Below, in pieces: positions 1,805-58,700 of a DNA stretch of 64,000 nucleotides; positions within the stretch are counted from its first letter, which is position 1; every line of letters begins with the position of its first letter. The stretch is from the NCBI RefSeq assembly GCF_026210795.1, contig NC_089432.1, positions 806,001 through 870,000 of the forward strand, given 5' to 3'. A program made the translations under genes and the position numbers. Below the pieces are notes generated by a model. That model did no database searches, was not told the origin of the DNA, and was given only the letters and a program-made list of their open reading frames with translations. Origin of the DNA: Rhizophagus irregularis (Eukaryota).

Positions 1805-4800
1805 TTAAATCATACAATCTTCAAAACTTTCACTAGCAAAACTAAGTAAGCCACTACAATCCAAGCAATCAGAGTTTTGATCTAAAATTTTGGTAGTTAA
1901 ACGGTTTGTATAATATGCTTGTGGACGAAATTGTATAATAGAAGTTTCAGTTTGTTCTTGCAATAAAGCTTTATTGGCTTTTACAAATTCTTCTATAACA
2001 TTTCTGTTTTGGTCCATATTAATACTAGTTATAGAATATTCACTATTTTCTTCATTCACTTCATAATATTCATTAACACATATAAGCCATTTAGATATAA
2101 TATTTTCAAGATCTCCTATAGTTGGTCTTTTAAAAGGGTCCGAATTCCAACATTTTTTCATTAAATCTATATAACATTTTGGAGTACTTTTTATAATTTC
2201 AGGACGTTCTCCTTCACAAATATCTATAATGAGTTGATGATCATGTACTTTATTATTAAATGGAGGAACACCTGACGTAAATTCCCACATTATCATTGAG
2301 AAGCTATAGATATCACTTGCTTGAACATAAGGTTGGTTTCTTAATGCTTCAGGTGCTATATACGGTATAATTCCATAAATTTTGTCAATTTCATTTTGTA
2401 ATGAGTCTTTTACGAGTTTACACAATCCTAGATCAATAATATATGTTTCAAAATTATCTGATATTAAAACATTACCATCATGAAGGTCACAATGAATAAG
2501 ATTTGATTCATGTATTGTCTTAAGTCCCAAAATAATATTTTTTAGTAATTGTAATTTGTATTGCCATTTAATTTTAGCTATGTCAGATAAACATTTTCTT
2601 AAACTTCCTTTTTTTGCATAACTCATTACTATTATATAATTTAAATTATTTGGGTCTTGAGTAATCCCAAAAATTTGAATAAATTTTGAAAATGATTTTT
2701 TCTGACAATTATAATGATATTTCCACTATATAAGTGATTAAAAAAATCATTAGTTTTAATAAATAAAAGAAAAAATAAAATAAAATTTACCTCACTTAAA
2801 AATCTATCAAAATTTGATGAATTATTAAAACATTTAAGAACAACTTCATAATTTGGTAGCCTATTCCACTGTTGTTTATTAAAATTCCAACTATTAATAG
2901 GACCATCTAGCCAAATAGCTTTATGGATTTCACTAAATCCACCTTTATCATAATAACTAATATTTTTCAATCTATTATAAGATATCCACTCTAAAACTTC
3001 ATAACTATTTTTAGCATTTAGTTGTGCTTCTTGAATAAATTCATCAATAAACTTGTTTTTACTTGTCCAACTTAAAAAATATTGTTGAAATTGTCTAGTA
3101 TTACATTTTTGACACCAATAGTAATCAGTAAATGGTTGTTTACATTCTTTACATAATTTATTACCATAAAAATTTTTAAGAATTATTTTATCATTTTCTG
3201 CTACTTTTTGATACCAATAAAAGGCTTTTTCTAAATTCTTTTCCGTTCCTTTACCATCATAATAACATCTAGCTAAATTAATTTGTGATTCTTTAACACC
3301 ATTTTCTGCTGCTTTTTGATACCAATGAAAGGCATCTTTTAGATTCTTTTTTGTTACTGTACCATAGTAATAACTTAAACCTAAATTAAATTGTGCTTCT
3401 TTAACACCATTTTCTGCTGCTTTATAATCCCAATAAAAGGCCTTCTTTAGATCCTTTTTTACTCCTTCACCATTAGTATAACAACCAGCTAAACTGTTCA
3501 TTGCATATTTATTACCATTTTCTGCTGCTTTTTGATACCAATAAAAGGCTTTTTCTAGATTTTTTTCTGTTTCTTTACTATTTCTATAATAGTTGGCTAA
3601 AGTATATTGTGCATTTTCTTCACCATTTTCTGCTGCTTTTTGACGCCAATAAAAGCCTTTTTCTAAACTCTTTCCTGTTCCTATACCATTATAATAAAAT
3701 ATAGCTAAATTAATTTGTGATTCTTTAACACCATTTTCTGCTGCTTTTTGATACCAATAAAAGGCTTTTTCTAGACTCTTTTCTGTTCCTTCACCATGTT
3801 CATAATGTATGGCTAGATTAAACATTGCTTCTTTAACATCATTTTCTGCTGCTTTGTAATACCAGTAAAAGGCTTTTTCCAATTTTTTTTCTGTTCCTTT
3901 ACCAGTTTTAAAACAATTGGCTAAATCACATTGTGCACTTTTATTACCATTTTCAGCTGCTCTTTGATACCAATAAACAGCTTTTTCTAGATTCTTTTCT
4001 GTTCCTTCACCATTGTAAAAATGTGTAGCTAAACTATTCATTGCACTTTTATGATCATTTTCTGCTGCTTTTTGATACCAATAAAAGGCCTTTTCTAAAT
4101 TATTTTCTATTCCTTTACCATTTTTATAATATAAAGCTAAACTGTTCATTGCATTTTTATCACCATTTTCTGCTGATTTCTGAAACCAATAAAAGGCTTT
4201 TTCATGATTCTTTTCTGTTCCTTCACCATTGTAATAATGTATAGCTAAATTATGCATTGCATTTTTATTACCATTTTTTACTGCTTTTTGAAACCAATAA
4301 AAAGCTTTTTCTAGATTCTCTTCAATTCCTTCACCATTATAATAATGCATAGCTAAATTAGCCATTGCATTTTCATCACCATTATCTGCTGCTTTTTGAA
4401 ACCAATAAAAGGCTTTTTCTAGATTCTTTTCTGTTCCTTCACCATTATGATAACATGCAGCAAAATTAAATATTGCATTATCGTTACCATTTTCAACTGC
4501 TTTTTGACACCAATAAAAGGCTTTTTTTTGATTCATTCCTATTCCTTTACCATTATGATAACATTTGGCCAAACCGTTCATTGCATCTTTAGAACCATTT
4601 TCTGCTGCCTTTTGATACCAATAGAAGGTTTTTTCTAGATTTTTTTCAGTTCCTTTACCAGTTTTAAAACATAAGGCTAAATTATATTGTGCATTTTTAT
4701 TACCATTTTCAGCTGCTCTTTGATACCAATAAACAGCTTTTTCTAGATTTTTTTCTGTTCCTTTACCATTTGCATAATATATGGCTAAAATGTTCATTGC

Positions 4801-6399
4801 ATCTTTATCACCATTTTCTGCTGCTTTTTGATACCAATAAAAAGCTTTTTCTAGATTCTTTTCTGTTCCTTCACCATTTTTATAACATGCAGCCAAATTA
4901 AATATTGCATTATTATTACCATTTTCAACTGCTTTTTGACACCAATAAAAGGCTTTTTCTAGATTTTTTTCTGTTCCTCTACCATTTGCATAATATATGG
5001 CTAAAATGTTCATTGCGTCTTTATCACCATTTTCTGCTGCTTTTTGATACCAATAAAAAGCTTTTTCTAGATTCTTTTCTGTTCCTTCACCATTTTTATA
5101 ACATGCAGCCAAATTAAATATTGCATTATCATTACCATTTTCAACTGCTTTTTGACACCAATAAAAGGCTTTTTCTAGATTTTTTTCTGTTCCTTTACCA
5201 TTTTTATAATGTATAGCTAATTTATTCATTGCATTTTTATCACCATTTTCTGCTGATTTTTGATACCAATTATAAGCTTTTTCTAGATTCTTTTCTGTTC
5301 CTTCACCATTTTTATAACATTTAGCTAAATTAAATTGGGCACTTTTACTACCATTTTTTACTGCTTTTTGAAACCAATAAAATGCTTTTTCTAAATTCTT
5401 TTCTGTTCCCTTACCAATGTAAAAATGTGCAGCTAGGCTATTCATTGCACTATTATGACCATTTTCTGCTGCTTTTTGATACCAATAAAAGGCTTTTTCT
5501 AGATCCTTTTTTATTCCTTCACCATTTTCAAAGCATACAGCTAAATTATTCATTGCAACTTCATTACCATTTTCTGCTGCTTTTTGATACCAATGAAATG
5601 CTTTTTCTAGATTCTTTTCTGTTCCTTTGCCATATTTAAAACACATGGCTAAATTATATTGTGCACTTTTATTACCATTTTCAGCTGCTTTTTGACACCA
5701 ATAAACAGCTTTTTCTAGATTCTTTTCTGTTACTTCACCATCTTTATAACATATAGCTAAACTGTTCATTGCATCTTTATTACCATTTTCTGCTGCTTTT
5801 TGATACCAATAAAAGGATTTTTCTAGATTCTTTTCTATTCCTTTGCCCTTTTCATAATATATTGCTAAATTATATTGTGCATCTATATGACCATTTTCTG
5901 CTGCTTTTTGGAACCAATAAAAGGCTTTTTTCAAATTCTTTTCTGTTTCTTCACTATTGCAATAATATACAGCTAAATTGTATATAGCCTTTGTATTACC
6001 ATTTTCTGCAGCTTTTTGAAACCAATAAAAGGCTTTTTCTAGATTCTTTTCTGTTCCTTTACCATTTGCATAATATATGGCTAAAATGTTCATTGCATCT
6101 TTATCACCATTTTTGGCTGCTTTTTGATACCAATAAAAAGCTTTTTCTAAATTCTTTTCTGTTCCTTTACCATCTTCATAACATAAAGCTAAACTGTTCA
6201 TTGCATTTTTATTATTACCATTTTCTGCTACCTTTTGATACCAATAAAAGGCCTTTTCTAGGTTCTTTTCTATTCCTTTACCATTTTCATAACATGCAGC
6301 TAAGGCAAATTGTGCAATTTCATCGCCATTTTCTGCTGCTTTTTGATAGCAATAAAAGGTTTCTTTTAACAAATCAATATTAACACTTGAATCACTCAT
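1805..6399 (-). CDS. Sel1-repeat (~29 units) + protein kinase, about 1509 aa; exons 6399-2791 and 2725-1805
   Basis: The two track ORFs join through a 65-nt GT-AG intron (2790-2726), giving ...FLSE|WKYHYNCQ...IVMSYAKKG. 36-aa SLR units; kinase motifs DKGGFSEI, VVLK, HCDLHDGN, DLG, APE, DIYSF. Confidence 0.9.
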
Positions 6400-7639
6400 A
6401 TTAGTGAGACTGAGTTACTATTATTGAGGCAATAAGTTGTCAATTTAATAATTTTTTTTCATTTATTTGAATTTGGATTTCTTTTAATAATTAAGAATAA
6501 AAAACAATGTATAGTCCTTTATGTAATCCGTATATATATGGAAATTATATGTTTACATTTAGAATTAGGTTTGTGTAATGGCGTTTGATGTATCATGTGA
6601 GAATGTCACATTTATTCTTAAACATGAAATCCAGATTATCTGTGTAACAGGCATGCATCAGGAAGTCACGAGAAAAATGTTCATCACATGTATATTTTTG
6701 CATTATTTTAAATGTACATGTAATATTTAACGTTAATGAACATCATCAATGAGATTTTTATCAAATGGCACTGAGTGAATAAATTTATATGTATTTGAAA
6801 ATAAAATTTTAAATTAGCTTATAGGTGCGGTCGGAATTGCCAAATTGAAATTATGGCATTACGAAATATGGATTTTACCATTTAAAATATATAACAAAAC
6901 ATCAAGATTATCAGATTTACGGATTACAAATTATCTATGCCCATAATCAAAAAAAAATTTTACTTTCTTTGTGTAATTTTTGTATATTTGGCATTAAATA
7001 ATTATGACATTACGGCGATTTAATATATTACGGTATAAGCTTCATATGTATGGCAAGCCGAGTTGGACTAAACTATCAGGCATTGGGCGGATGAAAAATA
7101 AAGCATGGATTGACAAATGTTACACTGTGCCTGACATTTTATCTGTTGTAAGACCTAAGCCCGTATAACAATACGTTTGCCACCTTAGGACTTAACAAAA
7201 TAATACTTTATTAATAATATAAACAAATACAATATATGCTTGGTTTAACAATACTAAATATTATCCTAAAATAAATCTCTAAATTCGTATCCTAGAATTT
7301 AATCTTCAAATTAATTCACGAAATTCGTAACTTGAAATTTTATCAGTCAAATTTGGTTCCTTTTTGTATTTTTCTAACTCTTAGCAGCACCCATTCCTTA
7401 ACAATTCAAGTATACTTTCTTCATGTATCAACAATTACACAAATCCGTAGTTACTCCTTAAATTGATCATCAGAATTTTCTAAATTCTTAATTCCTAAAT
7501 TTACTAGTTTAACGTCATCTCGTAACGTTACATTTGTAACGTCATACAATTTTAAAATACTAAAAATTCATACACTAATTTTAAATACGACATTACCCTT
7601 CATAATTAATAAATTTACTAGGTATATTACGGCATTACA

Positions 7640-16163: not shown

Positions 16164-19100
16164 TTAATTTTCATCTATTTTGATTTCTAAATAATTAAAT
16201 AAACAAATTACATCACATAAAATAATTGTGAATAAATACTTCTTTGTACATACAGTATTATATACATACCAAATGACTCCATATCATTAATTATATAATC
16301 ATCCAAATTTTCACTTTCTAGAATTCCATTCAATTTTCCACTAGTAAAATTAAGTAAGCGACTTGTATAATATGCTTGTGAATGAAATTTACTAGTATTG
16401 AGATTGCTACATCCAATTAAATTTGAAGTCAAAGGGGTACCATTAAGTGCTGAATCTGGTGTAGCTGATGATACTGGGGGTGCATCTATAAATTCCATAA
16501 CATTGCGTTTTAACTTTCATTAATATCTTTAATTTTCTTCCCATTAGGAATCATGATCCATTTTTTAATAATATCTAATACTTCTTCAGATGATGGTCTT
16601 TTTAATGGATCTTCATCCCAACACTTTTTCATCAAATCTACATAACATTGTGGAGTACTTTCAATAATTTCAGGACGTTCACCTTTACAAATACTTAAAC
16701 TAAGTTGAATATCATGTGCTCTATTATTAAATGGTGGAACTCCAGATGTAAATTCCCACATAATCATAGAAAAACTATAAATATCACTTGCTGGAGTATA
16801 AGGTTTTCCTCTCAAAACTTCAGGTGCCATAAATGACATCACACCATATAGCTTATCTTTTAAAAAAGATTCTGCAGGTTGACATAATCCTAGATCACTA
16901 ATATAAACTATATCCACTTTATTTTTTTGATTTTCTTTATTGTTATTATCATTCTTTTCATTTTTTTTATTATTATTATCCTCTTCATTTTCTTTATTAT
17001 CATGATCATCTTCATTTTCTTTCTTATCATCATCCTCTCCCTCATTATTATCATCCACTTCATTTTCTTTATTATTATCATCCACTTCATTTTCTTTATT
17101 ATTATCATCTACTTCATTTTCTTTATTATTATCGACTTTATTATTAACATCCTCTTTATACTCATGAAATAAAATATTACCATCATGAAGGTCGCAATGA
17201 ATAAGCTCTTGTTCATGTATTTCATTTAGCCCAGAAATAATTTGATACAAAATATATAATTTTTGTTTCCAATTATTTTGAATGATTTTTGTTAAATTTC
17301 CTCTTAAATTACCTCTGTTTGCATAATCCATTACTACCATATAATTTGAAGTATCTGGATCTTTTGTAAATCCATATAAATAAATAAAATTATATGAAAT
17401 TGAACAAATTATATGGTATTGCCACTATAAATATAAATTTAATATATTAGTATAAATAAATTATAGCTAAAATAAAAAAATAAATAATATATTATCATAC
17501 TTCTTTTAAAAATTCATTTAAATTTTCATTCAAATTATCAAGACATTTAAGAACTACTGTTTTATCTTTACGCTTATCTGACAAAATAGCTTTATATATA
17601 GTACTAAACCCTCCTTTATCAAGATATTCAACATTTTTAAATTTATTATAAGGAAACCATTTTAATCCCGTATGAAAAATAAATCTATCTAAAACCGTAT
17701 CTCCGCTTTCTCCTAATCTGCAAATTTAAACGAAGGTAGTCAAAATTTATATTAAAATCAAATTAAGAGAAAAAATAATACTAATACTTACTCTTAAATT
17801 TAAATAGAAATTTAAAAATTTAATATGATTTTAATATATATGTTGTGCCTCAGATCGATTCTTGCCTCAGATTGAAGCTCACGCACCTCACATTGAGATT
17901 GTCACCTGACGCACCTCATTTGAATCATTCAATAAAGTCTGTTATAAGTAAACTTTTTTTCTCATTAATTAAACCACTTTTTGTAACATAAACAAACTTG
18001 TGCACCATAACGAGTTACATGTTTCCTGAAATATTTATGTAAATCCAATTTATATTGAAGTTTATATTTGTGTTTTATCTGAAAAATCATTAAATTTTAA
18101 GTCATTTTTCAAATGAAAAGATTTAATAAGTATGATTCCAATTAATCTGAAATTATAGGATTGTATACTTAAAATAATGATAAATAAGTTTACTTAGTAC
18201 TTAAAAATACATTAAAATTGGAAATTTTGATGTTTAATTATAGCACATTTTTATTAGCAATTGAGGTGCGTCAGATGACAATCTCAATCTGAGGTGCGTG
18301 AGCTTCAATCTGAGGCAAGAATCAATCTGAGGCACAACATATATAATATATAATAACCTACAGTATATATAATTTAGTGTAACTTACCAACTAAATTAAT
18401 TGTCCAATATTTTTTTTAAAAAAATAATAAAATCAATTAATAAAAGTCGTAAATAAATATTGCAAAATATGTAATAATAAACTTAAATAGTGAACTTATA
18501 ACTTACAATCAAAAGTAAAAATATTATAATTTTTTTAAAAAAAGTTTTTGTTAAATTACATGTAATTATTATATAAATTAAATATATAACATTAAATTAG
18601 TAAATTTCTCACTCTCTATATCGTCAAATAATTATTTAAATAAAGTTTAGATAGTAAAAATTAGTACATGTAATTATATAGTTGTAAAAAATTAAATTAC
18701 AACTTACTAACTATAATAACTTGCCAAGTAATAAATAATTTTGTTAGTTTAGAGATCACATACATATATAATTAAAATAAAATAATTAACTTACTCCTTA
18801 TAATATTGAATAATTCTATACAAAAGTATATTTAGTAAATTATATAAAAACATCATATAAATTTATTATAATAAATTAAGATTAATAACTTACTCCCTAT
18901 TATTATGAAATAAAAAATTTAGTTAATAATATATAAAATATATACACAATAAATTAAATAACTTACACCCTAATTATTTAAATAAGAATGTGATTAGTTT
19001 AAACTTTAAAAACTTTAAATAATTATTACATAAATATATAAATAATAATAATAGAATTAAATAAATAACTTACGTCCTATAGTATTAAGTAGTTTTTTAA

Positions 19101-22100
19101 TTATAAATTTTAGTAAGTTTGAATTTATAATAACATTACTAAATAAATAACTTACTCACTATAATTTTATAAATAAAATTTTAGTTTATATTATATGCAA
19201 ATATTATATAGATATGTAAAGTAAAATTATAATTTAAAATGATAAAATTAAATAAGTAACTTACTTCCTATTATTAGATAATTGTTTAAATAAAGAGTTT
19301 AGTATTTTAATTTTTAAATTTATATAAATATCATAAATGAATAATAACAGAATTAAAAAACAATAGCTTACCCGCTATATTATTAAATAGTAATTATTTA
19401 AATAAAATTGGTTAATTTATACATATTATATAAATATTAAATAATCATTAGTAAATTGTAAAAAATTTGGTTAATTAAATCATATTAATAATATTATAAA
19501 ATAACTTATAACTTACAAGCTAAAATATAATGAAAAAATTAAAATTTAATTAGCTTAAACTATAAATCAATATTAATTAAATGACTAATTTATAACTTAC
19601 ATTCTATATTATTAGGTAATTTTTAAATAAAAATTTAATTAGTTTAAATTATAAAATATATAATAGTGGAATAAAATAAACAACTTACTTGCTATATTAT
19701 TAAATAATTTTCGAAATATTTAAATTATATAATTATTATATACTATACTGTAGTAAATACAATAACAGATTAAATATATAACTTACTCCCTAATTATTAA
19801 ATGGTAATTTAGATAAAAATTTAGTCAGTTTAATTCATAGTTAAATATTATTATATAAATTCAATATATAATTATAGAATTAATAACTTACTAACTATAA
19901 ACAATTTATTTATAAATAAAAGAATTAGTTATTTTATATAATAGTAAAATTAAATAATAATTTATGACTTACAAGCTAAGATTATAAATCATATTTTAAT
20001 TAGTAGTTTAAATTATAAATAAATGTTACACAAATGTGTAGTAATGTAATTAAACAAACAACTTACATGCTATTATTGAATAATATTTAATAAAATTTAA
20101 TTAGCTTAAACTATAAATAACTATTAATTAAATGACTAATTTATAACTTACATTCTGTATTATTAGGTAATTTTTAAATAAAAATTTATCAGTTTAAATT
20201 ATAGAATATATAATAGTAAAATAAAACCAACTTACTTGCTATAGTATTATTAAATAATTTTCAAAATATCAAATATTTTAAATTATATAATTATTATTAT
20301 TATATATACTGCAGATTAAATATATAACTTACACCCTAATTATTAAATAGTAATTAAATAAAAATTTAGTCAGTTTAATTTATAGTTAAATATAATAATA
20401 TAATGTGTAATAATAAATAACTTACACCCTAATTATTAAATAATTATTTAAATATTAAAATTAATTACACATAAATATCATATAAATATGTATAAATAAT
20501 TAAAAAAATAAATAACTTACACTCTAATTATTAAATATAAAATTTAAATTACATGTAAATGTTATATAAATGTGTAATAATAAAATAATATATAAATAAA
20601 AAACCAACTAGTTAGTTTAAATTATATGTATATATTAATAATTTATAATAATAAAATAAATAAACAATCAACTTACTTCCTATTATTGTATGTATTATCA
20701 GGTAATTATTTAAATAAAGAATTATAAAGAATTTAGTTTGTTTAAATTATATAAGCATATTTCAACTTAATTGTTTGTTTAATATATGGATTTACTGAGA
20801 GTTTTAGGAAAGGGTAGTTTCATTAAATGTATTAAATAAAACGAATGTAATAAAATTTTGGAAATTTTAGAAAATTTTAGAAATTGTAATTTAAAATTAA
20901 AGGGGCATTTTAATCATATAATATTATCAAAATTTGAGGAGTGGTATTTGTTAAACAAGCAATTAAGTTGCCTATATAATGTGTAAATATGCAATGTCAT
21001 AAATTAAATGAATAACTTACTTCCTATGTTTAAAATAATTTTTTAAATAAAATTTGATAAATTTAAATTTTATATAAATATACGTGTATAATAAAAACTT
21101 ATAGTTTACCAGTACCTTTATAAATTATTAAATAATTATAGTAAATTGTATAAATATTATACAAATAAACATAAATTTAATATATAACTTACAAGCTGTA
21201 ATAAATTACCATATAGTTAATTAAATAAAGAATCTAATTAGTTTAAATGATATGTATTATTTAATTATATAATAATAGAATAATATAAATAGTTTATAAC
21301 CTACCATCTATAATGAATTAAGAATTAAATTAATTGAAATTATGTAATAATATTATATAATTATAATATCATGATTAAATAAATAGTTTATAACCTACAA
21401 GCTATAATGAATTAAAAATTTAGTTAGTTAATAAATTATTTATAAATATTGTATAATTACATAATAATAGGATTAAATAAGTAGTTTATAACCTACCAAC
21501 TATAATGAATTAAGAATTTAGTTAATTAAAATAATATATAAATATTACATAATTATATAATAATAGGATAAATAAGTAGTTTATAACTTACCAACTGTAA
21601 TAAATTTAATAAATAAAGAATTTAGTTTGAATTATTTGTAAATATTGTTACATAATAATAGACTAAATAAATGGTTTGTAACTTACAAGCTGTGGTGGAT
21701 AAAGAATTTGGTTAATAAGAATTATATGTAAATATATATAATTAAATAATTTATGACTTACCAACTATAATAAGTTATCAAATAATTATAAAAATAAAGA
21801 ATTTAATTAATTAAAATAATATGTAAATATTGCATAGCTATATGATAATAAGATCAAATAAATAATTTATAACTTACCAGCTATAATAAATAAAGAATTT
21901 ATATTAATTAAGATAATATATAATTACTGTATAATTATATAATTATAAAATTAAATAAATAATTTATAACATACCCACTATAATAAATAAAGAATTTGGT
22001 TAATTAAATTTATTTATAGATTATATAATATTATAATTAAATAATTTATGACTTACTAGCTATAGAAAATTACCAAATAATTATATAAATAAAGAATTTA

Positions 22101-25100
22101 GTTAACTAAAATAATTTGTAATATTGTAATAGGATTAGATAAATAATTTATAACTTACCAACTATAACAATAACCAAACAATTATATAAGTAAAGAATTT
22201 AGACAATTGAAATAATACATAATTATTACATAATTAGGCAATACAAACTTAATTTTTCAGTTCTCATATCCCAGCTGGATGGGTCAGTTTCTGTTAAATC
22301 TCAAAAAAAAAATTTTTATATTATTATTATACCAGATAAGGTTTTATAAAAGTTAAAAAAAAATCAAAGCCAGGTTGCCAGGTTATGTCGTGTTATGAGA
22401 ACCAAAAAATTAAGTTTGCATGACTTATAGGATTAAATAAGTAATTTATAACTTACCAGCTATAATAAATAAAGAATTTATGTAAATTAAAAAATATGCA
22501 ATTTTATAGGATTAAATAAGTAATTTATAACTTACCAGCTATAATAAATAAAGAATTTATGTAAATTAAAAAATATGCAATTATCATATAATAATACAGT
22601 AATTTGTAACTTACGATCTATATTATTAAATAATAAAATTAGTCAGATTTACTTAATTAGATCATATAAATATATAATAATAAATTAAATAAATAATTTA
22701 TATAACTTACAAACTAAATGACAAGGTTAAATGAAAAATTTAGTTAATCAAAATAATTATATAATTATATAATAATAGTATTAAATAATTTATAACTTAC
22801 CAACTATAATAAATAAAGAATTTGGCTAATTAAGATTGTATGTATATATTGCATGATTATATAATAATACAGGATTAAATAAATATGACTTACTCCCTAT
22901 AATAAATAAGGAATTTATGTGGTGTAAAAGGATCGATTAGATCAATAACAGATTTGGCTACCGTTTTTTTGTGGTAAATAAATAGTTTATAACTTACAAA
23001 CTACAATAAATTACCAAAAAAAAAAAAAAATGGTGATTTAAAATACAAATATACAGTATAATAACAGGATTAAATGAATAGTTTATAACTTACAAACTAT
23101 TATAAAATACCAAATAATTATATAAATAAAGAATTTAGTTAAAATTATTTGTAAATATTATAATAATAAGATTAAATAAATAATTCATAACTTACCAACT
23201 ATAATAAATAAAGAATTTAGTTAATTATAAATTATATAAATTATAATTATATGTAAATATTATATAGTACCAGAAGTCTATACTTGCATAAAATTTAAAG
23301 AAATAAACTGGTGCTTTCTTCTACAAGACGAGTACTATTATATTACCAGTCAGATTTCAAAAAATGACTACATAAAAGTTATAAGTATTTAAAATATGTT
23401 GATTTTTATATAATCAGCTTAAAATCATGTGATTTCAATTTTATTTAGCCAATATTTTTTAATGACATTTATTTATTGAATACCATTCTAAGGCTTAAAA
23501 CATTCCAATATTTAAATTCAGCTTATTATCAGTTTGATTTTCTGAAACAGATGCCAAAACTGTTGCAATCTTATGATAATTTTTTTGCCAATTTCCTTTT
23601 TATGCTTGATTGTTATACTTTTCATATAAAATTGTGGATTTTTATTGGCCAATTTTTTACTCACATGATGGATTAGAAATTTGAAACATTGTTAAGTATA
23701 GACTTCCAGCACCATAATGATAAGAATAGAATTAAATAAGTAATTTATTAACTTACTTTCTGTAGTAATTATCAGAAATAAAAATTTAATTAAACTTATT
23801 ATATGTAAATTTATTTATATATAAGTTTAAATAAATAATTTATAACTTACCACCATCTATAATAAATATATAAAGAATTTGGTTAATATAACTATTAAGC
23901 AAATATATGCAAATATATAAATTTAATAATGTAATTAACAGAGGTGCAAACTTTACTGACATAACTGCCATAAAAAAGCTACGACAATATGCTTACATAG
24001 AAATTTATAATAATTTATATAATATTAAGCTACATCACGAGTTCCAACCTTTCATTAGTGATGTAGCTAAAAAAAGAAAAAGTCTGCACCCCTAGTGATT
24101 AAATAAATAACAGGTTTTGTTTTTTATCACACCCGCAATATATCACACCCATATAAAAGTCAAATACAGCATTCTAAACCCTTTGATATACTAAGTAAAA
24201 TTGTAAAGCAGGCAAAAATAAGCATACTATATGGTTTTTTAAGTGTTACAATAGGTACATAGTTTTTGCGCCAAAAATGTGAAAAATTTTTGGCTAAGAT
24301 CGGCAAAGATTGGCATATTCATTATATAAAAATTGCCAAAAGGGAGCGTATCGCATATGCAAAAAAAATTAAATCCATAATAATAAATTAAAATAAATCA
24401 CTTATATAACTTACCAGCTATAATAATAAATCACCAATTTCATAAATAAAGAATTAAAATAATTAACATTATATGTAAATATCAAATAAATAAATATGTC
24501 ATAATAACATTAAAATTAACTTACCATCTGCATTTTTAAATAATTTAAAGAATTAAGTTAGTTAAGATTATTTGTAAATTCTGTATAATAAATTTGTATA
24601 TATTAACTTACAATCTATAATAAATTACATAAATAAAGAATTTAGTTAATTAAATGTTATATCATTACATAGTAATAGAATTAAATAAATAATTTATAAC
24701 TTACAATCTATAATAAATTACATAAATAAAGAATTTAGTTAATTAAATGTTATATCATTACATAGTAATAGAATTAAATAAATAATTTATAACTTACAAT
24801 CTATAATAAATTACATAAATAAAGAATTTAGTTAATTAAATGTTATATCATTACATAGTAATAGAATTAAATAAATAATTTATAACTTACAATCTATAAT
24901 AAATTACATAAATAAAGAATTTAGTTAATTAAATTATATGTAAAGATTACATCATTACATTAAATAAAATTAAATAAATAACTTACTCCCTATGATAAAA
25001 TAATTGTATAAATATAATTAAATTATATGTAAATATTATTTAAATATAATAAAACAATTTATATCTTACATACTATATTATTTATTATTAAATAATTTTT

Positions 25101-28100
25101 AAATAAAATTTAGTTAGTTTAACTTAGTATATATAATTATTTTATAAATATATTATAATAGGATTAAATAATAACTTATAACTTACATACTAATATATTA
25201 TAAATGATTATAAATAAATAAATTGTTAGTTTAGTAGATCATATTTAATTATATAATAGATATAACTTACCGACTATAATAAATTACCATATGAATAAAG
25301 AATTTAGTAATTATAAATATCATATAAATAAATATACAATTATAACTTACATGCTATATTATTAAATAATTTTTAAATAAAAAATTTAGTTAGTTTAAAT
25401 TATATATTAATTATATGATGATAAAGTTCAATATAACAATTTTAACTTACCAACTAGTAAATAATAAATTAATGTTTAAATTATATATAATTATACAATA
25501 ATAAAGTTCAATATAACAATTACAACTTACCCGCTATAATAAATTAACAAATAATTTTTGATTAAGGATTTAGTTAGTTTAATTATATATAGATATATAT
25601 ATATAAATATGAAATGAAGGAATTTTAACTTACTAACTATAATAAAGTAGTTCCAAATAATTTTAATTAAAGAATTTAGCTTGGACCATTAATTATGTAA
25701 ATGTCTAATAATAAATTTGAATAACTTCTACTTACTAACTACAATCAAATAACAAGTAATTTTTAAATAATATAGTTAGCTTATATTATATGTAAATATC
25801 TTACAAATATTAATTATCGAATAATAAATAAATAATTTCTAACTTACTTGCTATATTATTCATATCATTATTAAACAGTTTTAAATAAGGATTTTAGTTA
25901 GTTTAAATTATATGTAAATCTTATACAAATGTTTAATAGTTAAATAAATAATAACTTATATATAACTTACAATCTATAATAAATTAACAAATAAATTATA
26001 AGAGTTAACTTAGTTTAAATTATATAAAAATATTATATAATTATCTAATAATAAATTTGAATAGTAACTTCTACTTACAAATTATAATAAATTAATAAAT
26101 AATATATTAGCTTTATATTATATGTAAATATCACCCCTGTAAAAAATCTGATCCGTGTTTGTTTTTTCCGTGAATGTATCATTTTCACGGAATTTTTACG
26201 GAAGACACGATACATCAATTGGAATTATAGCGATAATTTATTATTGAGAAATAATGGAAATATTCGGATAAAAATTTTTTATAGGGCACACAAATATGAA
26301 TATGAAATTAATAAATAAATAATTTCTAACTTACTTGCTATATTATTTATATATTAACAAATTTTAAAAATAAAGATTATAGTTAGTTTAAATTATATGT
26401 AAATATTATAAGCATATATAAATATTAAATAACTTATATATAACTTACGAACTATAGTATAATTAAATATATTTATAAAAAAAGAAATTAGTTAGTTTAA
26501 ACTGCATTATTAATAATTATAAATATAGATTAAATAAAAATTTATAACTTACCGACTATAATAAATTTTAAATAATATAATTAATTTATATGTAAGTATT
26601 ATGCAAATATGTAATTTATAAAAGTAACAAATAAATAATTTCTAACTTACTAGCTATAATAAACCACCAAATTTAAAGAATTTAGTTAGTTTAATTTAAT
26701 ATATATATATAAGTATAAAAATAAAAATAATGTGAACTTACTAACTGTAATAAATTAATACCATAAATTTAATTGAAGAATTTAGTTTGTTTGATTGTTT
26801 TTATATAAAAGTCTAATAATAAAATTAAATAAGTAATTTATGGTGGCTTACCCCCTACAATAAAAATAATTTTATAAAAAAAGAATTTAGATAGTTTAAA
26901 CTTTAAACTATAATAATTATTATATAAATATATAATAATAAGGTTAAATAAATTTACTTACAACCTAAAATAAATTATCAAGTTTAGTTGCCTTAATTGT
27001 ATATAAATATCATATAAAAGTATAATAATAAAATTAAATAAATAATTTATGGCTTACAACCTATAATAAATTATCAAATAATTTCACAAATAAGAAATTT
27101 TGTTAGTTTAAACTAAGTAATTATTATATAGGTATATAACAATAGGATTAAAGAATAACTTACGATCTAAAATAAATTAACAAATAAAAATTTAGTTCGT
27201 TTATGTACTAATTGTTATAATAATTAATAATAAATATAAACAAATAATTTATAACATACCATCTATAATAAATTACCAAATATATAATATTATAAATAAG
27301 TGAATTTAATTAGATTAAATCATATATTAGCATTATACAAGCTCTAAATATGTCTTATCAGGTTGAGACTAAAATATTGGGTTATAGGTTAAACCAAGTT
27401 TATCACAAATAAATAAATTACTTACTTCCTACATTAATAAATAATTTTAAAGAATTTTGTTAATTTAAATTGTGTATAGATATTATAACAAATGCATAAA
27501 AATAAAAAAAATAAGCAACTTACTCTCTATTTATTAGATAATTAATCAAGTAAATAATTCAGTTAGTTTAAAAGCTTATATTATACTGCTATAATAAAAA
27601 TATGTAGCAATTAGACTAAATAACTTATAACTCACTTGTTAGGCCTATTAAATAATTTTTTTCAATAAAAATTTGGTTAATTAAATTATATGTAAATATC
27701 TTATAATAAAATTAAATGAGTAATTACGTACTATATTATTAAATAAATATTTGATAAAAAATTTGATTGATTAATATTATGTATGTTATATAAATATGCA
27801 ATAATAAAATTAAATAAATAACTTACTTTTTCCTAATTTTTAATAAGAAAATTGTTAATTTTAAATTATTATATACATGGATATAATATAAAGATGTAAT
27901 AATGAAATTAAGTAAGACTTACTTCCTACTATATTATTCGATAATTTTTTAAATAGAGAATTTAGTTCATATATATTGTATAAATATATGATAATGGAAT
28001 TTAAAACTTACTCCCTATATCATTGGATAATTTTTAATTAAGGAATTTGGTAATTTAGATTATGTATATAATTGTATAAAATAATTGAATAAACAATTTA

Positions 28101-29489
28101 CTTTCTACATTAAAGAATTTTTAAATAAGACTTACTTCCTATTTTATTAAATAATTTTCAAATGTTAGTTTAAATCATATTGATAAAATTGAATAAATAA
28201 ATTGTGACTTACCAACTATAATAAATTATCAAATAATTTTAAATTATAGAGTTAATATATAAATTATATAAATATGCAATAATAAAATTAAATAAATAAT
28301 TTGTAACTTACAGTCTAAATCAAATTACCAAAATAATTTTATATAAATATTATATAAATATGTAATAATAAAATTAAATAAATAGTAATTTATGACTTAC
28401 AACCTAAAATAATTTACCAAATTAATTTTTTATTAGTTAGTTATATGTGAATATTATAATATTAGAGTAAAATAAATAACTCACTCTCTACATTATTAGA
28501 TAATTTTTTTTGAATGAAAGAATTCAGTTAGTTTAAGTTATTTACAATATATGTGGTAGAATCAAATAAATAACTTACTCTCTATAATATTTCAATATTT
28601 TTTTTAAAATTTGGTTAATTTAAGTTATTTAAGTATATAATAATAGAATTAAATAAATAACTTATAACTTACTCTCTACATTATTAAATAATTCATTTTT
28701 AAATAAAAAACTTAGTTAGTATACAATATAGACTGAATATTGTATATAATAGAATTATGTAACTTACCAACTAAGTATTTACCAAATAATTTTGATTAAA
28801 AATTTAGTTAAATATATAAATAATAATAAAAGCATAAACAACCTATAACTTACACCCTATAATATTATTGATCGTTAATTAACTAGACGTAAATATTATT
28901 ATAAAAGTATATATAATTAAATTATAACTTACAATCTAATTTTAAATAAAAAATCAAATTAGTTTGAATTAAACGTGGATATTATATAAATAAAATACAC
29001 ATGAGTATAATATATCCTACCTTCTATAATATCATTAATCATTTAATGATTATTTGAACATGAAAGTTAATTATTTCATTTGAATATCATATAAAATGCA
29101 TTAAAAAAATAAATAACTAATAACTTACTAACTATAATTTTAAATTATTTAGTCATAAATATAAAAAATATTGTAAGTAATTCAACTATTATTCAAATTG
29201 TAAGATGACCAATTATTGACTTACGAGCTAAAATATTTAAATAAAAATAAGTTAGTTCCTATTATTTGTGTATATCACATAGAATTAAGAAACTTTTAAT
29301 TCATAAATATATTTGAATTACAGCTTGTATAGCAAATTATATTTACCTTCAGATTCCATAGCGCCGCTTGAATCTAGTTTTATTATAATATTGCAAATTT
29401 ATTACAAAATTTTAAAATAATTATATAATTCTAATTTGTATTATACATTCATGTTATATTCTTTTACCTTCATCATTTCTATGAGCCAT
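16164..29489 (-). CDS. Predicted two-TM membrane-anchored protein kinase with ~95 microexons. Exons: 29489-29468, 29373-29347, microexons 29227 to 17792, 17717-17501, 17424-16510 (stop as sequenced); ancestral tail continues in another frame to 16270 plus last exon 16186-16164
   Basis: Manual splice: MAHRNDEDSSGAMESEALKDWFEKKSYFGKRRRKIRLTKRNDRCWVTIVP(IY/N)SIITVAFVLWNYYYYADGEIVFWIVYPAVAMAVAFVAYACTGRKWWSKSSFRTKSSGMRRWIKIELGESGDTVLDRFIFHTGLKWFPYNKFKNVEYLDKGGFSTIYKA... then VVLK, HCDLHDGN, DLG, APE. The kinase exons are well supported; the microexon joining is inferred. Confidence 0.75.
16920..17160 (-). repeat. 30-nt coding tandem repeat making an N/D/E/K-rich insert in the kinase domain
   Basis: NKENEVDDNN-like units lie between HCDLHDGN and the DLG motif. 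Confidence 0.85.
17837..18343. mobile_element. MITE with ~85-bp TIR, intronic
   Basis: TATATGTTGTGCCTCAGAT...GACGCACCTCA versus TGAGGTGCGTCAG...TGAGGCACAACATATA, flanked by TA runs. Confidence 0.85.
20763..20970. mobile_element. MITE, intronic
   Basis: CAACTTAATTGTTTGTTTAA versus TTAAACAAGCAATTAAGTTG. Confidence 0.65.
22235..22427. mobile_element. MITE, intronic
   Basis: CAAACTTAATTTTTCAGTTCTCATA versus TATGAGAACCAAAAAATTAAGTTTG. Confidence 0.7.
23265..23714. mobile_element. MITE, intronic
   Basis: TAGTACCAGAAGTCTATACTT versus AAGTATAGACTTCCAGCACCA. Confidence 0.7.
23939..24094. mobile_element. hAT-type MITE, intronic
   Basis: CAGAGGTGCAAACTTT versus AAAGTCTGCACCCCTA; near-perfect 8-bp TSD GTAATTAA/GTGATTAA. 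Confidence 0.7.
24605..24960. repeat. 93-bp tandem repeat (4 copies) of one intron+microexon unit
   Basis: Microexon at 24612, 24705, 24798 and 24891 with essentially identical intervening sequence. Confidence 0.9.
26135..26286. mobile_element. Small MITE, intronic
   Basis: CCCTGTAAAAAAT...ATTTTTTATAGGG termini; higher GC than the flanks. Confidence 0.6.
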
Positions 29490-55739: not shown

Positions 55740-58700
55740 TTATTAGGAATTTGACTTTTATGCGGGATGCATAAATTGCATCCCATGCATAGTAATTCTG
55801 ATATACATGGGTATTTAAATTATTTAATAAATACATCATAATTGTCTCATGCGCAGCTTTTTTTGATACGCGTCTAAATTTAGACTTTTTTATTTCACAT
55901 GATCATGTGTTTAAATTATATTTTACTTTTTTTTCCCAACGATTATCATCTTTCCTCTTCCCCTCTCTTCCTCTCTTCCTATCTCCCCTCTTCTTCTCTA
56001 GTCTCTCCTCTCAACCTCTTTCTCCCACTTATAAATTTTATTACAACTAAAATGAGTGACTCCGAATTTATGTCAAGCGATGATGAAATTTTCGATGAGG
56101 CTTTTGATAATGATTTTATTGAAAATATTCCTAACGACAGTGACTCTGATGGTGAAGATAATGGCGGTTCCTCCAATGAAACTCTGAAATTGGAAGTTGG
56201 GATGGCTTTTCTCACCTGGAAGATTGCATTTAACCACATCAAGCAATGGGCTCACCAACAGGGCTTTGGCATACGCAAAGGAAGATCAGAAAAAATAGAA
56301 TCTAAATTAAGAAAACAAACAATTGTATGTTTCTGTGAAGGGGTTTATAATAATCAATCAAAAAAAACTAACAAACCATCAAAAACACATCGCACAAACT
56401 GCAAATGGCATGTTAATCTTTTTCGGCCAACAAAAAATAACCAAAACTCTATGATTTTCATTACTACAATTGTTGATGAACATTCTGGACACAGTTTGGA
56501 TCCTTGTGCACGTCGATTTGAAGCAGATAAAGCTTTTACAAAACCAATGTTAGATGATATTGAATGGATGTATGTGCATGGTCATTTAAAGCCATTAGCA
56601 ATTAAACGAATGTTGAAGGCTAAATATAAACGTAAAGTTTATAACAAGGATCTTTATAAAATAATTTACAAGTACCATCGCAATATTGATCAATTAGGCA
56701 ATGATGTTTCACAACTTTTTGAGTATCTTGAAAAATGTAAGGAAGATGATCCACGTTGGATAATTTATAAAGATTGGGACCGTGAAACCAACACACTGAC
56801 GAAACTTTTTTGGATGAATCCTGATCAATTAGAAACTTGGTATCGCTATAATGATGTAATTCTTAATGATAATACTTCAAAAACAAATCGTTATGAAATG
56901 TCTCTTTCTTTTTTTGTAGCAATAGACAATAGTATGAAATCTCGAATTGTAGCACAAGCATTGATGGATCGTGAAACAAAGGATGCGTACGCTTGGGTTT
57001 TGCAATGTACAATTGATGCAACAGGAATTATTCCAAAAGTATTCATAACAGATGCTGATCCTGGTATGGATCTAGCTATTCGGTTAAAATATTCATCCAC
57101 ATTTCCTATTCATTGTATCTGGCATATTGGACAGAATTTACCTTTACGTCTTAAGTCAAAGCTTGGTGGTTTATTTGACCAATTTAAAAAAGATTTTTAT
57201 GAATGTAGGAATAGTTTGAAACAAGAAATATTTGAACATCGTTGGGCAAATTTACTTATTAACTATCCAAATGCTGCTAATTATCTTGAAAAGTTTCTTT
57301 ATCCTTCTAAATGTTCTTTGGCTCGAGCATTTAGTGTCATGATTTTTACAATAGATATTCAAACAACATCACGTTGTGAATCTGTTAATGCCACATTTAA
57401 AAATCTCTTACAAAATTCAAATAATACACTTGTAGATATATTTTTTACTATTGAAGAGCGGTTAGAAGAAGAGTAAGATAATACTGATTATTTAAATTGG
57501 CAGAACTCTCTTACAACAATTCAATCCAGTACAATAGCTTCTAATGCTTTTACTGATGTAATTAACGAACTCAAGGATTTTACAACTCCTTCAATTCAAA
57601 AAATTCATAATAATGAAATGGAATTGGCATTTAGTTATGACGCTAGACCTTTGGATCAATCTTATATTAATAATGAAGATTCTCATGTATGATGTTAATT
57701 ATTAAGTTCATTTATTTTTCAGATTGATATGTAACAAATTTTAACTCTTTTTTAGGATTTATTATTTGCTAATGATTTTATTGAAAAACAAGAAGTACGG
57801 CAACTTTCCTTTCAGCAACTTTTACTATCATGTGACCAGAAAGAAATTAAAAGTCTTTGGGGCGTTAGCTATTTAACCTCTTCCGATACACACCATTTAG
57901 TCATTTTATTAGATAATGGGATGTATAAATGTTCGTGTATGTCTCTGATTAATCGTGGTACTGTTTGTAGGCATTATTTCTGTGTAATGTTACGAACATC
58001 TCAAGCTCAATTCCATATTGGATTCCTTAATCCGCGGTGGTTTGTTGAAACTTCTCCAGATCTTAGGAGTCGTCCATTCTGTCCTGCTTCGAAGTTTAAA
58101 ATGGATTTGGTTATTCCATATTTAGAATCTAATAATCCTCCTAATTTTCTTCATTCAATAAATGAAAATATTTTGAATAGAAATAATCCGTATGTCACTC
58201 TTAGTAAGCAAAAGTTATATTATATGAATATTAAAGGTTTGTCTAAACAAACAAGTTGTGTTGCTTGCAAAACTTGTGATGAATCTTTTGTTACATTACT
58301 TGAGGATTATATTACCAAGAAAAATCATGAAGCATTGGAGTTGGCGCAACTTGGATCATTAAACAATCGATCTCAAGATTTGATTAATTTAGAACCTGAT
58401 CAGGAAAATGCTGAACAACTTGGAAATCCTATAATTTGGCGGCCTAAGGGAAGACCTCCGGGAGTTGCAAGGTACAAAAATCCTTTAGAGGAATCATCTA
58501 AACCTAACGAAGGTACCTGTAAAAGAAAAAATCAACAAAATAAATGTAGTTTGTGTAATAATGTTGGACATAATCGTACAACTTGTCCTTCAAATCCAAA
58601 TGGAAAGAAAAGGAAAACATCATTGTAATTTAATGGCTCCCTTCGGTCGCCTGTTTGCATTTTAATAGTATTTTAATAGTATGAGCTTATCTTTGATACT

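Follow-up and report, generated by a model that had tools for sequence, protein, structure and literature searches.

The one-base unit at the array-kinase junction

Can a single nucleotide be an exon in its own right, and does the reading frame of a gene depend on it? This question is raised by a predicted kinase gene of Rhizophagus irregularis on the minus strand of the window, the stretch of 64,000 nt that was analysed (NC_089432.1, 806,001-870,000, assembly GCF_026210795.1; all coordinates are window-relative). A preliminary description of this DNA had proposed that an isolated A, lying between an array of tiny exons and the kinase exon, is spliced in as an exon of one base and is needed to restore the frame. 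The elements at this junction are the following:

17792, minus strand: candidate single-nucleotide exon (A), from the letters and the alignment with relatives
17793..17795, minus strand: acceptor of the one-base unit, AAG (TAG in 8/8 relatives)
17718..17791, minus strand: 74-nt intron GTAAGT...TTTGCAG, the CAG of which is the family-conserved phase-2 acceptor
17713..17715, minus strand: copy-specific TAG, a phase-1 acceptor after which the exon would start at 17712 (from the sequence, the relatives and record 12 of contig set X3)

The minus strand reads TTTAAG-A-GTAAGT, with the A at 17792 and the GT of the donor at 17791. The letters reported earlier (AAG-A-GTAAGT and a 74-nt intron ending in the CAG at 17718) are therefore correct. 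One base lies between AG and GT with introns on both sides, as is expected of a single-nucleotide exon; these introns measure 595 nt upstream (78 nt without an insertion described below) and 74 nt downstream. The strict motif [TCA]AG-N-GTAAG[TC] was matched once in control sequence of the window amounting to 116,002 bases. Because the kinase exon behind the 17718 acceptor reads A TTA GGA GAA AGC, the CAG acceptor needs phase 2. When the exons were joined in silico using this acceptor, the A restored the frame and one GAA codon was built from three exons, as had been proposed.

Other candidates were considered and rejected. Five further AG-N-GT matches in the array turned out to be GAG within 3-nt units of AGA or AGT and are not one-base exons. 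Nor does a longer exon fit the 17791 donor, as all six other upstream AGs within 120 nt gave stops and the wrong phase.

A candidate array of codon-sized exons

Upstream of the kinase, units of the form YAG-NNN-GTAAGT recur about every 95 nt. The predicted 5' part of the gene, with the insertion that interrupts it, is composed as follows:

29468..29489, minus strand: predicted first coding exon of 22 nt, with the ATG at 29489, ending in phase 1 (from the sequence and paralog annotations)
29347..29373, minus strand: predicted second exon of 27 nt, starting and ending in phase 1 (from the sequence)
18388..29227, minus strand: array of 93 candidate microexons (from a motif search and the openness of phase 1)
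21110..23198, minus strand: units for one hydrophobic segment (about residues 68-92) followed by basic residues (Kyte-Doolittle)
17832..18348, no strand assigned: MITE-like insertion with 91-nt terminal inverted repeats that are 95% complementary (from the sequence)

The annotated paralogs P0083, P0091, P0100 and P0113 start with similar residues, MA[HYL]-N. Between 17700 and 29300 the minus strand contains 85 AG-NNN-donor motifs as against 0.32 in 100 Markov resamples, with two elsewhere in the window, which indicates that the array is not a product of chance. Its 93 units consist of 91 found in a first pass and two that were inserted manually (donors 25069 and 21109); the model excludes one further unit, with an intron of about 30 nt, at donor 28101. 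There are 89 units of 3 nt, three of 6 nt and one of 9 nt, preceded by 85 TAG, seven CAG and one AAG acceptors, and the median intron is 93 nt.

Since exon 1 has 22 coding nucleotides and exon 2 has 27, the array is in phase 1. The 91 first-pass units contain one phase-1 stop compared with 5.5 in unit-order shuffles (P=0.006), and the 93 units contain none with 5.6 expected, phases 0 and 2 being at expectation; for the 93-unit model to be free of stops, one of the manually inserted units, which has AAG as acceptor and GTAAAC as donor, must be included. The avoidance of stops in phase 1 alone implies that the array behaves as phase-1 coding sequence, that is, as a long run of consecutive exons, 89 of them of 3 nt, with short introns and coding constraint. 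Exon lengths, stop avoidance and the reading of the kinase exon together bear out the earlier deduction that a phase-1 array meets a phase-2 kinase exon. Skipping of a single unit would create a stop in 5/91 cases.

Joined to the first exons, the array gives a head of 114 amino acids. Its Kyte-Doolittle maximum over 19 residues is 2.18, a value attained in 16/3000 unit-order shuffles in a test that is inflated by local unit duplication, and the hydrophobic segment of residues 68-92 is, by this prediction, likely to be a transmembrane helix. A second membrane helix in the 114-aa head was not detected at a hydropathy cut-off of 1.6. The array would in this way encode an unannotated N-terminus of about 114 amino acids with one membrane helix, tethering the kinase to the membrane.

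Between 24604 and 24934 a perfect 93-bp tandem repeat (3.6 copies, 100%) comprises one intron plus an ATT unit, which suggests that the array grows by recent unit duplication. At donors 26078, 18794 and 18506, array-like units retain a good GTAAGT donor and have TAA or TTG replacing TAG; these AG-less units are probably dead microexons, and the one at 18794 could alternatively be read as AAG-GA, an exon of 2 nt. The MITE-like insertion, the arms of which are covered by high-depth contigs, separates the last 3-nt unit from the A at 17792. Its removal in silico leaves an intron of 78 nt before the A, compared with the array median of 93 nt, so that without the insertion the A would lie at normal array spacing.

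The one-base unit in related loci

A metagenome scan yielded 60 loci, of which 53 were examined (L049, L052 and L056-L060 were excluded as contig-end or weak matches). Fifteen of the 53 lacked an upstream donor and eight lacked a tiny last unit. A 1-nt terminal unit, TAG-A-GTAAGT or TAG-T-GTAAGT, was present in six loci (L001-L005 and L007) and a 4-nt terminal unit, TAG-AAAA-GT, in two (L008 and L010). The AG and the GTAAG of the window align with those of the relatives, where the upstream intron averages 54% pairwise identity; the 1-nt unit of the six loci and the 4-nt unit of the two occupy the same place in the homologs.

The first open downstream acceptor was of phase 2 in 8/8 loci with a 1-nt or 4-nt unit. 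Among loci ending in a 3-nt unit the phase-1 acceptor came first in 18/22, or in 16/19 after merging three near-duplicate pairs, the exceptions being L006, L045/L046 (phase 2 first) and L020 (phase 0). The last unit of L006, which groups as sister of L005, has decayed; in L005 a stop follows the first acceptor. The end branches of the tree measure 0.2-1.06 among the relatives, and the 1-nt, 4-nt and 3-nt classes cluster by subfamily (five changes for four labels). This clustering means that the phase match reflects few independent events. The main force of the argument is the retention, at the sequence level, of AG-N-GTAAG along long branches.

A longer open exon of 3n+1 nt leading to the same donor was absent within 120 nt in the window and in 7/8 relatives. 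The seven relatives checked have no phase-1 AG among the opening 17 nt of their kinase exon, so that these relatives have no close bypass of the one-base unit. Array stops showed the same pattern as in the window, with none in phase 1 against 6.6 expected over 15 loci (140 units) and with phases 0 and 2 at expectation. A second kinase subfamily (L019, L031, L041, L045 and others) has up to 18 3-nt units within the stretch covered, and its arrays join directly to a phase-1 exon.

These observations might also be accounted for if the phase shift of the family came from a donor moved by 4 nt (GTAA-GT) on the last exon, AG-N-GT being vestigial. K-F-G joins are found in 18 annotated paralogs; the residue before the K is S, C, G or R in 18/18, and all 18 joins fit a run-through of GTAA. 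The joins are gene predictions, however, and in favour of the adapter reading the residue before the K would be as expected of gene predictors that read 4 nt into a GTAAGT donor in order to reach phase 2. Moreover, the shifted donor on the last 3-nt unit of this copy would be a poor GTTACA, and a shifted donor leaves unexplained why six diverged loci keep AG-N-GTAAGT and two have a 4-nt unit in its stead. A moved donor is thus regarded as highly improbable.

It is very likely, instead, that the one-base exon is real and serves as an inherited phase adapter, and we attach a high probability to its being a true ancestral feature of the kinase subfamily. The ancestral join would have been last codon exon, A and CAG acceptor, with a terminal exon of 3n+1 nt converting phase 1 to phase 2. 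If each short intron is removed separately, by intron definition, exon size would hardly matter and exons of 1-3 nt could be retained.

A second acceptor in this copy

In the window copy the kinase exon itself contains a second acceptor, a TAG that ends 5 nt in, at 17713; it is reached directly in phase 1 and had been missed in the preliminary description. The close relatives L001 and L007 have Phe (A TTT GG) where this copy has Leu (A TTA GG), and it is the TTA in place of TTT that created the TAG. Two in-frame forms were obtained in silico: the A with the CAG gives 491 amino acids, and omission of the A with TAG 17713 gives 489. The mixed combinations are out of frame and end after 115 and 123 amino acids. 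As the form without the A that uses TAG 17713 is in frame, the A is not required in this copy, contrary to what had been claimed, whereas in 7/7 relatives checked, with no phase-1 AG in those 17 nt, the frame would be lost without the terminal unit. It had further been suggested that skipping of the A shifts the frame and could switch the kinase fusion off. The frame is indeed lost with the CAG, but it is kept with TAG 17713, and the idea of an off-switch finds no support here; a regulated off-switch is possible in paralogs that have no bypass acceptor.

According to this scheme, the present copy would later have changed in three ways: the upstream intron took up an insertion, the acceptor of the A became a weaker AAG, and a phase-1 TAG arose. 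Two in-frame and two out-of-frame splice routes would result.

RNA evidence at the junction

Reads and contigs were aligned to window positions 16300-18400. X3, a set of contigs that carries another organism label (a related organism) and is RNA by guess, has zero depth over the 74-nt intron. Record 12 of this set (379 nt, depth 3.9), the only RNA-like contig to reach the junction among the matches listed, shows no differences over 87 nt (17712-17626), and 292 unaligned nucleotides precede 17712. Use of the CAG would have extended the match to 17717; its end at 17712 points to TAG 17713. The loose ends of paralog reads coincide exactly with the exon end at 17501, which suggests that such ends are base-precise. 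Record 12 begins at 17712 and not at 17713, as a last exon of TTG predicts, which implies that the preceding base is not G. The upstream exon or allele of record 12 could differ from the TTG model, and it could end in A; alternatively, the record could represent the out-of-frame form that combines the A with TAG 17713. The preliminary description had named a junction at another acceptor as the outcome that would contradict it, and the start of record 12 at 17712 goes weakly in this direction, being one contig of a related organism that is RNA by guess.

Among the matches listed, no read or contig containing the A at 17792 was seen in X3, X11, X21 or X22. The raw RNA runs X21 and X22 consist mostly of paralog reads, near-identical reads (99% or more) making up 10/1488 and 18/1748, and neither the joints (15 of 22 listed) nor the loose ends (24 of 284 listed) touch the junction. 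X11 has no piece at the junction among the matches listed.

It could be argued that this copy, too, requires the A and includes it constitutively, the CAG at 17718 being always used and the TAG at 17713 ignored. The CAG is the first AG past the putative branch region as well as the family-conserved site, the annotation of protein P0042 uses it, and AAG acceptors look tolerated, as AAG is found at the kinase acceptor in 6/7 relatives listed. Against this, record 12 stops short of the CAG without a mismatch, and the A has to be reached through an AAG, where 8/8 relatives have TAG, behind an intron of 595 nt. Constitutive use is therefore considered unlikely. The A at 17792 is probably an inherited one-base exon that would lead from array phase 1 to kinase phase 2 and has become optional here through TAG 17713. 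That it is used in most of the in-frame mRNA of this copy is possible, at somewhat below an even chance.

The kinase gene and its annotation

Downstream of the junction the gene continues with two exons:

17501..17717, minus strand: first kinase exon (72-aa match to P0042; the end at 17501 agrees with the loose ends of paralog reads)
16510..17424, minus strand: second kinase exon, PK_Tyr_Ser-Thr, with an acidic Asn/Asp/Glu insert, stopping early after a one-base loss near 16514

P0042 is an annotated R. irregularis protein (EXX54375.1 / GBC20504.2) with 100% identity over the 72 amino acids of the first kinase exon and the same C-terminal residues as the window kinase. PF07714 and PF00069 score above cut-off in it (124 and 115 bits), in agreement with a predicted kinase. 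Pfam returned kinase families only, without NACHT or ankyrin, which places P0042 outside the nank family of Tuber. The annotation of P0042 does not include the array; it begins with five residues from the insertion arm at 17928, uses a GTGCGT donor and joins at the CAG acceptor 17718. The N-termini annotated for the paralogs are short, partial or inconsistent, and among the N-termini listed from protein searches no protein had an evident transcript-derived, array-encoded N-terminus. In the annotations of P0100 and P0113 the N-terminus carries acidic repeats of nine residues, the length that a 27-nt exon such as the second one here would encode, and these may reflect arrays of such exons.

The kinase frame has its stop at 16510. 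One extra base is present at 16514-16515 in paralog reads (15/15 and 19/19) and in an X3 contig, and the frame with this base runs into the conserved C-terminal tail of the family; P0042 is equally short. Within the kinase domain, the acidic Asn/Asp/Glu insert (16925-17133) has a 27-nt period and is absent from the paralogs listed, and an X3 contig carries a version that is 6 nt shorter. The window further contains, at 1805-6414 and 13972-61921, a kinase frame that adjoins a frame with 29 Sel1 repeats, seven more frames with Sel1 repeats and, at 55884-57476, a MULE transposase.

Signs of decay in this copy could mean that its one-base unit is a dead relic and that any kinase expression begins with a first exon in the insertion, or that a pseudogene is forming. 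The first residues of P0042 at 17928 with their GTGCGT donor, the loss near 16514 of the base that gives access to the conserved tail, and the lost AG of the units at donors 26078, 18794 and 18506 would agree with this. The whole array is nevertheless still open in phase 1, and the first exon derived from the insertion is an annotation prediction that is not common to the paralogs. A dead unit is accordingly judged improbable, and it would leave the one-base exon of the family unaffected. The preferred reading of an inherited but optional exon would allow that this copy has drifted, as seen in the insertion, the AAG, the new TAG, the lost AGs and the one-base loss near 16514, and that its dependence on the adapter is likely gone.

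Discussion

One-base exons have been described before. In plants they are known from APC11 (PMC4674806) and VPS55 (PMC8831610), in Coprinopsis cinerea 13 were reported (PMC12230235), and the CYP621A P450 genes of Fusarium contain one as well (Nelson and Syed 2026, PMC12940212). Judging by the relevant sections of these papers, such exons are commoner than the preliminary description suggested. The exons of APC11, VPS55 and Coprinopsis share with the window unit, as far as these sections describe them, the single base, the flanking normal spliceosomal introns, the strong GTRAGT donor and the fact of having been missed by annotation. They are isolated, belong to ordinary genes and are RNA-supported, and none is described there beside a microexon array.

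The closest parallel is the CYP621A exon, which is also fungal and conserved among homologs and in which a phase-1 boundary likewise needs one base between AG and GT to reach a phase-2 exon. As presented in the sections concerned of PMC12940212, it provides the middle base of a conserved Gly, lies between ordinary exons and was confirmed by SRA reads. The window unit, in contrast, ends an array of about 90 microexons, has A or T or a 4-nt unit in its place among relatives, is accompanied by a bypass acceptor and was seen in none of the reads listed. By analogy, it is a candidate exon that would work like that of CYP621A, except that this copy does not require it.

Arrays of codon-sized mini-exons are known from the nank (NACHT-ankyrin) genes of Tuber melanosporum (Iotti et al. 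2012, cited in PMC4986451 and PMC13449251). As summarized in these citing papers, they resemble the window gene in having codon-sized exons in runs of tens and in belonging to a fungal gene family that has expanded. The window gene differs in that it is a PK_Tyr_Ser-Thr kinase of Glomeromycota with a predicted membrane-anchored N-terminus and a 3n+1 adapter at the end of the array. Kinases (PF07714/PF00069) are expanded in R. irregularis and were described, in the section of PMC3886924 that deals with them, as a strikingly over-represented gene class. The literature searched, which covered journals outside subscription, gave no report of microexons in Rhizophagus or mycorrhizal fungi; the matches listed that had both microexon and mycorrhizal wording concerned circular RNAs of Lotus, and main-text passages of a preprint on long-read annotation of R. 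irregularis make no mention of microexons. One-base exons and codon-exon arrays are thus each known already, and for mycorrhizal fungi no report of either was found.

A broader proposal can be put forward tentatively. A widespread kinase subfamily of mycorrhizal fungi may have a hidden membrane-anchored N-terminus that is spliced from exons of one codon each (up to 90), a one-base adapter and a junction codon made from three exons. Duplication and skipping of units would vary the receptor-like part, and the choice of the adapter would determine whether a full kinase is made or a membrane peptide that lacks the kinase. Combining an old adapter with a newer acceptor that is in frame, this copy offers a natural experiment on the loss of a one-base exon. 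If the array and the adapter are spliced, the gene would be an extreme test of splicing, with some 95 introns flanking exons of 1-9 nt, and the end of the array would place 3-nt, 1-nt and kinase exons in succession. Many R. irregularis kinases would in that case have a front end that is missing from the annotation, likely anchored in the membrane and readily varied; the annotated paralogs were seen without this N-terminus. The front end would then be a candidate sensor at the surface of the fungus.
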